Below, one piece after another: positions 2,565 to 2,831 of a stretch of 12,099 nucleotides of DNA. The position numbers and the translations under genes are program-made. The stretch covers positions 1 to 12,099 of the forward strand of contig CAYJVT010000024.1 in assembly GCA_964373695.1 (NCBI GenBank), read 5' to 3'. This DNA comes from an uncultured archaeon. GTDB lineage: Archaea > Aenigmatarchaeota > Aenigmatarchaeia > GW2011-AR5. Below the pieces are notes generated by a model that was given only the letters and a program-made list of their open reading frames with translations, was not told where the DNA came from and made no database searches. Each line of letters starts with the position of its first letter. The first letter of the stretch is position 1.

Positions 2565-2831
2565 TGAGGCTAGGCCGGGTGGGTAGCGGACACCTGTAAC
2601 CGTCAATCCGCTTCGGCGGGGCCGAAGCCCGGGGGCGGCCCGCAAACTTCATGAAGCCCGCACCCAGAGCGAAGAAGCCCAGACCTATGGGATTGTTTCT
2701 GTGATGAACCGTGCGAGGTCCGGAAGGAAGCAGCACTAAATTATGGAAATAATGCTCATGGGAACGCTGGGTGGAGCGATGGAGGCGGACAAACTTCCTG
2801 CAGCTAGCGTGTCAACCTCGGGCGTGCCTCA
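2565..2831 (+). ncRNA. ffs: Archaeal signal recognition particle (7S/SRP) RNA, about 267 nt
   Basis: Helix 8 SRP54-binding motif GTGC-GAGG-TCC-GGAA-GGA-AGCA-GCAC (2711-2736), preceded by GAACC. Terminal helix 1 TGAGGC/GCCTCA (2565-2570/2826-2831). Alu domain: GGCC/GGCC helix 2, GGTG/CACC helix 3, UGUAA turn, CCGTC/GGCGG helix 4, and loop-loop pairing AGCGGA(2585-2590)/TCCGCT(2607-2612). Long helix 5 includes GCCCGGGG/CCTCGGGC and CACCCAG/CTGGGTG. Confidence 0.96.

Follow-up and report, generated by a model that had tools for sequence, protein, structure and literature searches.

An SRP RNA gene lacking helix 6 in an Aenigmatarchaeota archaeon, and the absence of SRP19 matches from its lineage

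Introduction

The canonical archaeal 7S RNA, represented by the Rfam family Archaea_SRP (RF01857) and by the molecules of Methanocaldococcus jannaschii and Archaeoglobus fulgidus, consists of helix 1, an Alu domain with a UGUNR motif, a long helix 5, a helix 6 with a GNAR loop, and a helix 8 with a GGAA loop and SRP54-binding loops. According to reviews, helix 6 is present in every archaeal SRP RNA, and the clamp between helix 6 and helix 8 probably occurs in all archaea (PMC2905702). A 2010 review of the archaeal SRP recorded SRP19 genes in all archaeal subgroups, together with the coexistence of SRP19 and helix 6, and DPANN groups are absent from its table (PMC2905702). Previous studies showed that archaeal SRP54 can bind 7S RNA in vitro without SRP19 and that Haloferax volcanii, the one archaeal species tested, can dispense with SRP19 (PMC2905702, PMC6098224); the SRP of an SRP19 deletion strain of this species is described as working (Yurist et al. 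2007, as cited in PMC6098224 and PMC2905702). In a paper on a nanohaloarchaeal genome, SRP54, FtsY and an SRP RNA are listed but SRP19 is not, and no comment is made on this (PMC10266531). In the full-text literature outside subscription journals, our search found no publication that describes an archaeal SRP RNA lacking helix 6 or a loss of SRP19 in DPANN archaea.

Among bacteria, the closest described system is the Bacillus-type large SRP RNA (scRNA, RF01854), which possesses an Alu domain, helix 5 and helix 8, and has no helix 6. The Alu domain is bound by HBsu in Bacillus, while the 4.5S RNA of Escherichia coli has neither an Alu domain nor helix 1.

Here, we describe an SRP RNA gene found in the genome of an archaeon of the phylum Aenigmatarchaeota, within a stretch of 12,099 nt (the window). 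The RNA resembles the canonical archaeal 7S RNA in helix 1, in an Alu domain of the UGUNR type, in its long helix 5, in a helix 8 that carries the GGAA loop and the SRP54-binding loops, and in having RF01857 as its best-scoring family, whereas it lacks helix 6, the GNAR loop and the adenosine clamp between helix 6 and helix 8, measures about 270 nt instead of the canonical 300-315 nt, and has no SRP19 partner that we could find. It shares the layout of the Bacillus-type RNA (Alu domain, helix 5 and helix 8, no helix 6) and probably also an S domain occupied by SRP54/Ffh only, but its host is an archaeon and its sequence is nearer to the archaeal model. The helix 8 core is probably almost identical to that of E. 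coli 4.5S RNA, and the binding mode of SRP54 and Ffh is presumably alike; unlike 4.5S RNA, the window RNA has both the Alu domain and helix 1. As an archaeal SRP that would function without SRP19, it also recalls the H. volcanii deletion strain, which is, however, a laboratory deletion with helix 6 kept, whereas in the present case searches for the protein came up empty and whole phyla lack its RNA site.

Results and discussion

Identity and extent of the gene

An original prediction, made from the same stretch, had proposed an archaeal SRP RNA of about 267 nt with an intact Alu domain, an archaeal sequence and a bacterial-large topology, and had suggested model alignment, covariation analysis and a genome search for SRP19 as checks. 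Archaea_SRP was the sole Rfam family found in the window by cmscan, and the match is complete (model 1-317), scoring 132.3 bits against a cut-off of 96.5 bits. The Bacteria_large_SRP model (cut-off 60 bits) was likewise matched from end to end (model 1-256, 82.8 bits), and is outscored by the archaeal model by 50 bits at this locus. Because both models match end to end, the sequence of the RNA is archaeal and its layout that of the large bacterial type, as had been proposed. The length, measured as 267-271 nt with a core bounded by helix 1, and the intact Alu domain, whose helices 2-4 covary, are also as predicted. The locus gave the only SRP RNA match in its own genome (Table 1).

We read the locus as the sole SRP (7S) RNA gene, and a functional one, of an Aenigmatarchaeota archaeon; the identity and structure of the RNA are shown directly, and the reading as a whole, which includes the SRP54-only particle proposed below, is very likely. 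Upstream of the gene, an A/T-rich box of the TTTAAnnA type occurs equally far from the gene in 11 of the 12 family members that were aligned, which suggests a promoter role for the box in the window.

Table 1. Coordinates of the SRP RNA gene, its structural elements and neighbouring features in the window
Feature	Position	Strand	Evidence or remark
SRP RNA gene	2563-2833	+	RF01857 132.3 bits; RF01854 82.8 bits over 2565-2831
TATA-like box CTTTAATAATTT, probable archaeal promoter	2536-2547	+	about 20-28 nt 5' of RNA start
Helix 1, 5' strand	2565-2570	+	pairs with 2826-2831; consensus structure, all 7 pairs covary
Alu domain	2573-2623	+	RF01857 alignment, consensus structure, pair counts
Helix 2	2573-2576/2620-2623	+	Alu domain
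Helix 3	2577-2581/2591-2595	+	Alu domain
UGUAA motif	2595-2599	+	Alu domain (UGUNR type)
Helix 4	2600-2603/2616-2619	+	Alu domain
Helix 5, 5' strand	2627-2699	+	holds conserved hinge loop GAGCGAAGAA at 2667-2676
Expected helix 6 branch site	2699-2700	+	stacked pairs C2699-G2746 and U2700-G2745; zero unpaired bases
Helix 8, SRP54-binding	2700-2745	+	RF01857 alignment
Helix 5, 3' strand	2746-2823	+	holds conserved GGAGCGA at 2773-2779
Helix 1, 3' strand	2826-2831	+	consensus structure
Spurious ORF, 74 aa	2512-2736	-	ORF list; overlaps covarying RNA gene
Spurious ORF, 80 aa	2357-2599	+	ORF list; overlaps covarying RNA gene
HerA-like ATPase ORF	33-1247	-	neighbour
M50-peptidase-like membrane protein ORF	1900-2505	-	neighbour
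Archaeal type IV pilin-like protein ORF	4746-5201	-	neighbour
CARDB-like protein ORF	11194-12033	-	neighbour

Secondary structure and the missing helix 6

The structure was examined in an alignment of 49 sequences, made up of the window gene and 48 relatives, free of insertions, that come from its order and phylum. Covariation across these sequences bears out the predicted fold: of the 89 pairs in the RNAalifold consensus, which agrees with an unbranched structure, 82 show compensatory changes. Standard pairs fill 91.7% of the cells, compared with 65.9% in shuffles and 40-46% when the pairing partners are slid by 1-3 columns. Not one of 500 shuffles matched any of the observed measures, a count that is not to be read as a probability since the relatives share ancestry; the slid controls preserve that relatedness, yet score far lower. 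Purifying selection thus acts on the structure of the SRP RNA. The single sequence, folded for minimum free energy, also gives this rod without a branch (-118.3 kcal/mol, z -3.22).

In the alignment to RF01857, the helix 6 columns are deleted, 2 nt standing in for the 40 model positions that separate helix 8 from the 5' strand of helix 5. The junction helix 2684-2705/2740-2762 runs unbroken through the place where helix 6 would branch off, with 22 pairs, of which 20 covary, and 92% of the cells paired in the 49 sequences. The closing pairs of helix 8 and their unbranched continuation had been predicted exactly: TGTGAT (2700-2705) pairs with ATTATG (2740-2745), and this helix is stacked on the one formed by ATTGTTTC (2692-2699) and GAAATAAT (2746-2753). 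Between 2671 and 2700 there is no GNAR-capped hairpin, again as foreseen, while the segment CCTATGG (2684-2690), formerly read as a possible side stub, lies within helix 5, as part of its 5' strand, and has 2755-2762 as its partner. Helix 6 is therefore absent, and helix 5 stacks straight into helix 8.

The rest of the rod is formed by helix 5, whose consensus pairs lie at 2627-2656/2794-2823, 2658-2666/2780-2788, 2677-2682/2767-2772 and 2684-2699/2746-2762. Helices 2-4 of the Alu domain are 97-100% paired across the alignment and show compensatory changes, and the loop bases GCGG (2586-2589) are complementary to CCGC (2608-2611), suggesting that the two Alu loops may contact each other. Helix 8 displays the asymmetric loop GAACC (2706-2710), the symmetric loop CGAGG (2714-2718)/AGCAG (2729-2733) and the GGAA tetraloop (2722-2725). 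The bases contacted by SRP54 do not vary in any of the 49 sequences, namely G2706, A2707, A2708, A2716, G2717, G2722, G2723, A2725, G2730, C2731 and A2732.

Insertions in the longer genes of relatives

The SRP RNA genes of many Aenigmatarchaeota bear insertions of 33-126 nt. In all 26 longer genes examined (286-399 nt), the extra length consists of insertions at a few hot spots, which are located after window positions 2597-2603 in the Alu domain, at about 2612 in the helix 4 loop, at 2712-2728 in helix 8, and at 2740, directly 3' of helix 8. Only two genomes, L042 and L090, carry insertions in the helix 6 slot itself (about 2695-2699). The 43-nt insert of L042 is aligned as helix 6 by the covariance model, and was rejected as such, as it has a 16-nt loop without a GNAR sequence, its congener L041 has no insert, and excision at a strict bulge-helix-bulge (BHB) motif restores the L041 sequence exactly. 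The insert of L090 (about 18-23 nt) only extends the rod in the fold, and the gene falls below the cut-off. We conclude that a canonical helix 6 is not seen in any member of the phylum sampled here.

The strict BHB motif of tRNA introns, in which flanking helices and two 3-nt bulges surround a central helix of 4 bp, fits seven inserts, those of L080 (L080:56-106, genome G020), L017, L088, L094, L095, L096 and L042, and removal of the inserts that fit it leaves the intron-less consensus. A relative from the same genus (L023) carries a 64-nt insert in the Alu domain to which the strict motif could not be fitted. There is also a recurrent insertion of 18-54 nt at the tip of helix 8 (window 2722-2728), inside or beside the GGAA loop, which forms a hairpin of its own and was observed in L084, L091, L092, L093, L042 (L042:1712-1742), L083, L085 and L098. 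It leaves a GNRA-like CGAAAG alongside in L084, L091-L093 and L042. As this insertion does not fit the strict BHB motif, it may be an intron, or helix 8 may be genuinely extended.

SRP proteins and the search for SRP19

The genome that carries the window (as contig 24) comprises 1.02 Mb in 60 contigs and is estimated to be 91% complete. SRP54 is encoded on contig 4 (L032:541-1869) as a protein of 443 aa with N, G and intact M domains, and the receptor FtsY is encoded on the same contig (genome G000, contig C4, L112:11987-14875, plus strand, 962 aa). In contrast to these two, SRP19 could not be detected. The Pfam profile PF01922 gave no match at E<=10 in this genome and none above cut-off in 41 genomes of the order, 151 of the phylum and 61 of a second phylum; it also misses the control genome of Sulfolobus acidocaldarius, and is not conclusive by itself. 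The NCBIfam profile NF001973 (PRK00754, Srp19), which at E<=0.01 was positive in exactly four of four archaeal controls, Sulfolobus included, and in none of 10 bacterial ones, returned nothing at E<=10 in the genome either. These positive controls are four archaeal genomes, none of them from a DPANN lineage that keeps helix 6.

Among the 151 relatives, a single NF001973 match of 16 bits lies within a 430-aa ORF, and weak PF01922 matches in relatives (E 0.02-0.1) lie within ORFs of 400-670 aa or in frames containing stops; all were dismissed as chance. None of the 89 relatives that are at least 90% complete has an SRP19 match, and no small ORF around SRP54 and FtsY resembles SRP19. SRP19 was thus found neither in this genome nor in the 151 relatives, although at 91% completeness the gene may lie in the missing part, and both profiles could miss an SRP19 that has diverged very far. 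The proposed independence from SRP19 is accordingly upheld as far as the genomes go, with both profiles negative and SRP54 and FtsY present.

Distribution and affiliation

SRP RNA matches were obtained in 34 of the 41 genomes of the same order, mostly of 268-273 nt, and in 141 of 151 Aenigmatarchaeota genomes (at least 80% complete, sampled via SRP54 relatives), mostly of 265-290 nt, with 14 of the 141 below the RF01857 cut-off. A second phylum of small-genome archaea yielded matches in 58 of 61 genomes, almost all of 263-275 nt. The helix-6-less form and the absence of SRP19 matches are therefore lineage-wide, a trait of whole phyla and not the quirk of a single organism. One scan of metagenome contigs for the exact 46-nt helix 8 pattern found no further copy.

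The affiliation of the host is indicated by its SRP54, which shares 92% identity with its counterpart in a groundwater MAG named Candidatus Aenigmatarchaeota. The best 120 database matches are all at least 62% identical, and those among the 120 that bear an organism name are labelled Candidatus Aenigmarchaeota or Aenigmatarchaeota and once 'archaeon', with no other label. A scan of the genome collection with SRP54 recovered only Aenigmatarchaeota, the second small-genome phylum and two bacteria. Two of the genomes, G175 and G173, proved to be members of one phylum.

Access to the second phylum came through MAGs labelled by NCBI as 'uncultured Methanosarcinales' and 'archaeon ARS1334', which belong to one phylum. 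MAGs linked to it include L069 and L070 (CAZHVK010000013, CAZPDB010000025) and L073 (NZBO01000076). Those named 'uncultured Methanosarcinales archaeon' are 1.0-1.5 Mb in size, while the phylum they share with 'archaeon ARS1334' spans 0.5-2.1 Mb, and the MAGs of this phylum have SRP RNAs of about 270 nt and no SRP19 match. The Methanosarcinales label looks wrong because of this shared small-genome phylum, the length of the SRP RNAs and the lack of an SRP19 match.

Alternative explanations

It could be supposed that helix 6 is supplied only in the mature RNA, by splicing, permutation or a separate RNA, and that the gene merely looks helix-6-less. Relatives have intron-like inserts in their SRP RNA genes, including the L042 insert in the helix 6 slot, and these would be in line with such processing, as would the SRP RNA of Thermoproteus, which arises from a permuted gene (PMC4731332). 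However, the window gene is free of insertions and its fold is a full rod supported by covariation, the insert of L042 has no GNAR loop and is removed as a BHB intron to give the L041 sequence, and just one SRP RNA match exists in the genome, and we regard a helix 6 added after transcription as very improbable. Slightly less credible still is a bacterial large SRP RNA gained by horizontal transfer and displacing the archaeal one. It would explain why RF01854 is matched over its full length and above its cut-off, but the archaeal model scores 50 bits higher, the same form occurs across two archaeal phyla with a sequence divergence that tracks kinship, and the named SRP54 matches among the best 120 (at least 62% identical) all come from Aenigmarchaeota/Aenigmatarchaeota or 'archaeon'. 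The family RF01854 calls for a bacterial host, and what was found instead is archaeal: the relatives of SRP54 are archaeal, and an archaeal pilin-like gene and prefoldin lie nearby.

The main rival to a particle with SRP54 only is an SRP19 that is present but too divergent for the profiles, and that uses another binding site, such as the helix 8 tetraloop by itself. The failure of PF01922 on S. acidocaldarius demonstrates that six-frame profile searches can miss a divergent SRP19, and DPANN proteins evolve fast. Against this, the second profile, which does detect the Sulfolobus protein, likewise finds nothing, the main docking site of SRP19, helix 6 (PMC2905702), is lacking in about 200 genomes, and no SRP19-like ORF lies close to SRP54 or FtsY. 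A hidden SRP19 is, in our judgement, improbable, albeit worth more attention than the two possibilities above.

Proposed particle and its implications

Since SRP54 and FtsY are present and SRP19 is undetected, the particle most likely consists of SRP54 with its M domain on helix 8 alone. Judged from the genomes, it is very probably SRP54 on a Bacillus-shaped RNA, with neither helix 6 nor SRP19. SRP54 would bind helix 8 by the M domain without the help of SRP19. With no helix 6 to clamp it, the GGAA tetraloop would be available to the receptor, as it is in bacteria, and the Alu domain would be retained for contact with the ribosome. SRP54 is thus proposed to assemble and work without SRP19.

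We infer that the state without helix 6 arose by loss. It appears rather unlikely that an SRP lacking both helix 6 and SRP19 was instead ancestral in DPANN archaea and, should DPANN be an early branch, possibly in Archaea at large. If it were so, the ancestral particle of prokaryotes would have been SRP54 by itself on a Bacillus-type RNA, and helix 6 and SRP19 would have been invented later, on the line to other archaea and eukaryotes. The absence of helix 6 can serve as a character for judging whether the Bacillus-type layout is ancestral.

By score and sequence, the window RNA is a member of the archaeal family that fails two textbook features, helix 6 and SRP19. The textbook statement is corrected by two whole phyla of small-genome archaea that lack helix 6 and in which no SRP19 was seen. 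Their particles, presumably SRP19-free by nature, provide material for asking what SRP19 and helix 6 do in archaea.

Annotation of the locus and other observations

Genes of this form pass both the archaeal and the bacterial Rfam models, and some relatives score below the archaeal cut-off; pipelines may, for these reasons, mislabel or miss the gene. In the window, two spurious ORFs, on opposite strands, overlie the SRP RNA gene (Table 1). They are almost certainly not genes, and gene callers may list both. Most of the remaining ORFs in the window have no Pfam match.

Finally, the FtsY gene, which comes after a prefoldin alpha gene, carries an intein with a LAGLIDADG homing endonuclease at residues 253-782 or so, near the start of the GTPase domain.
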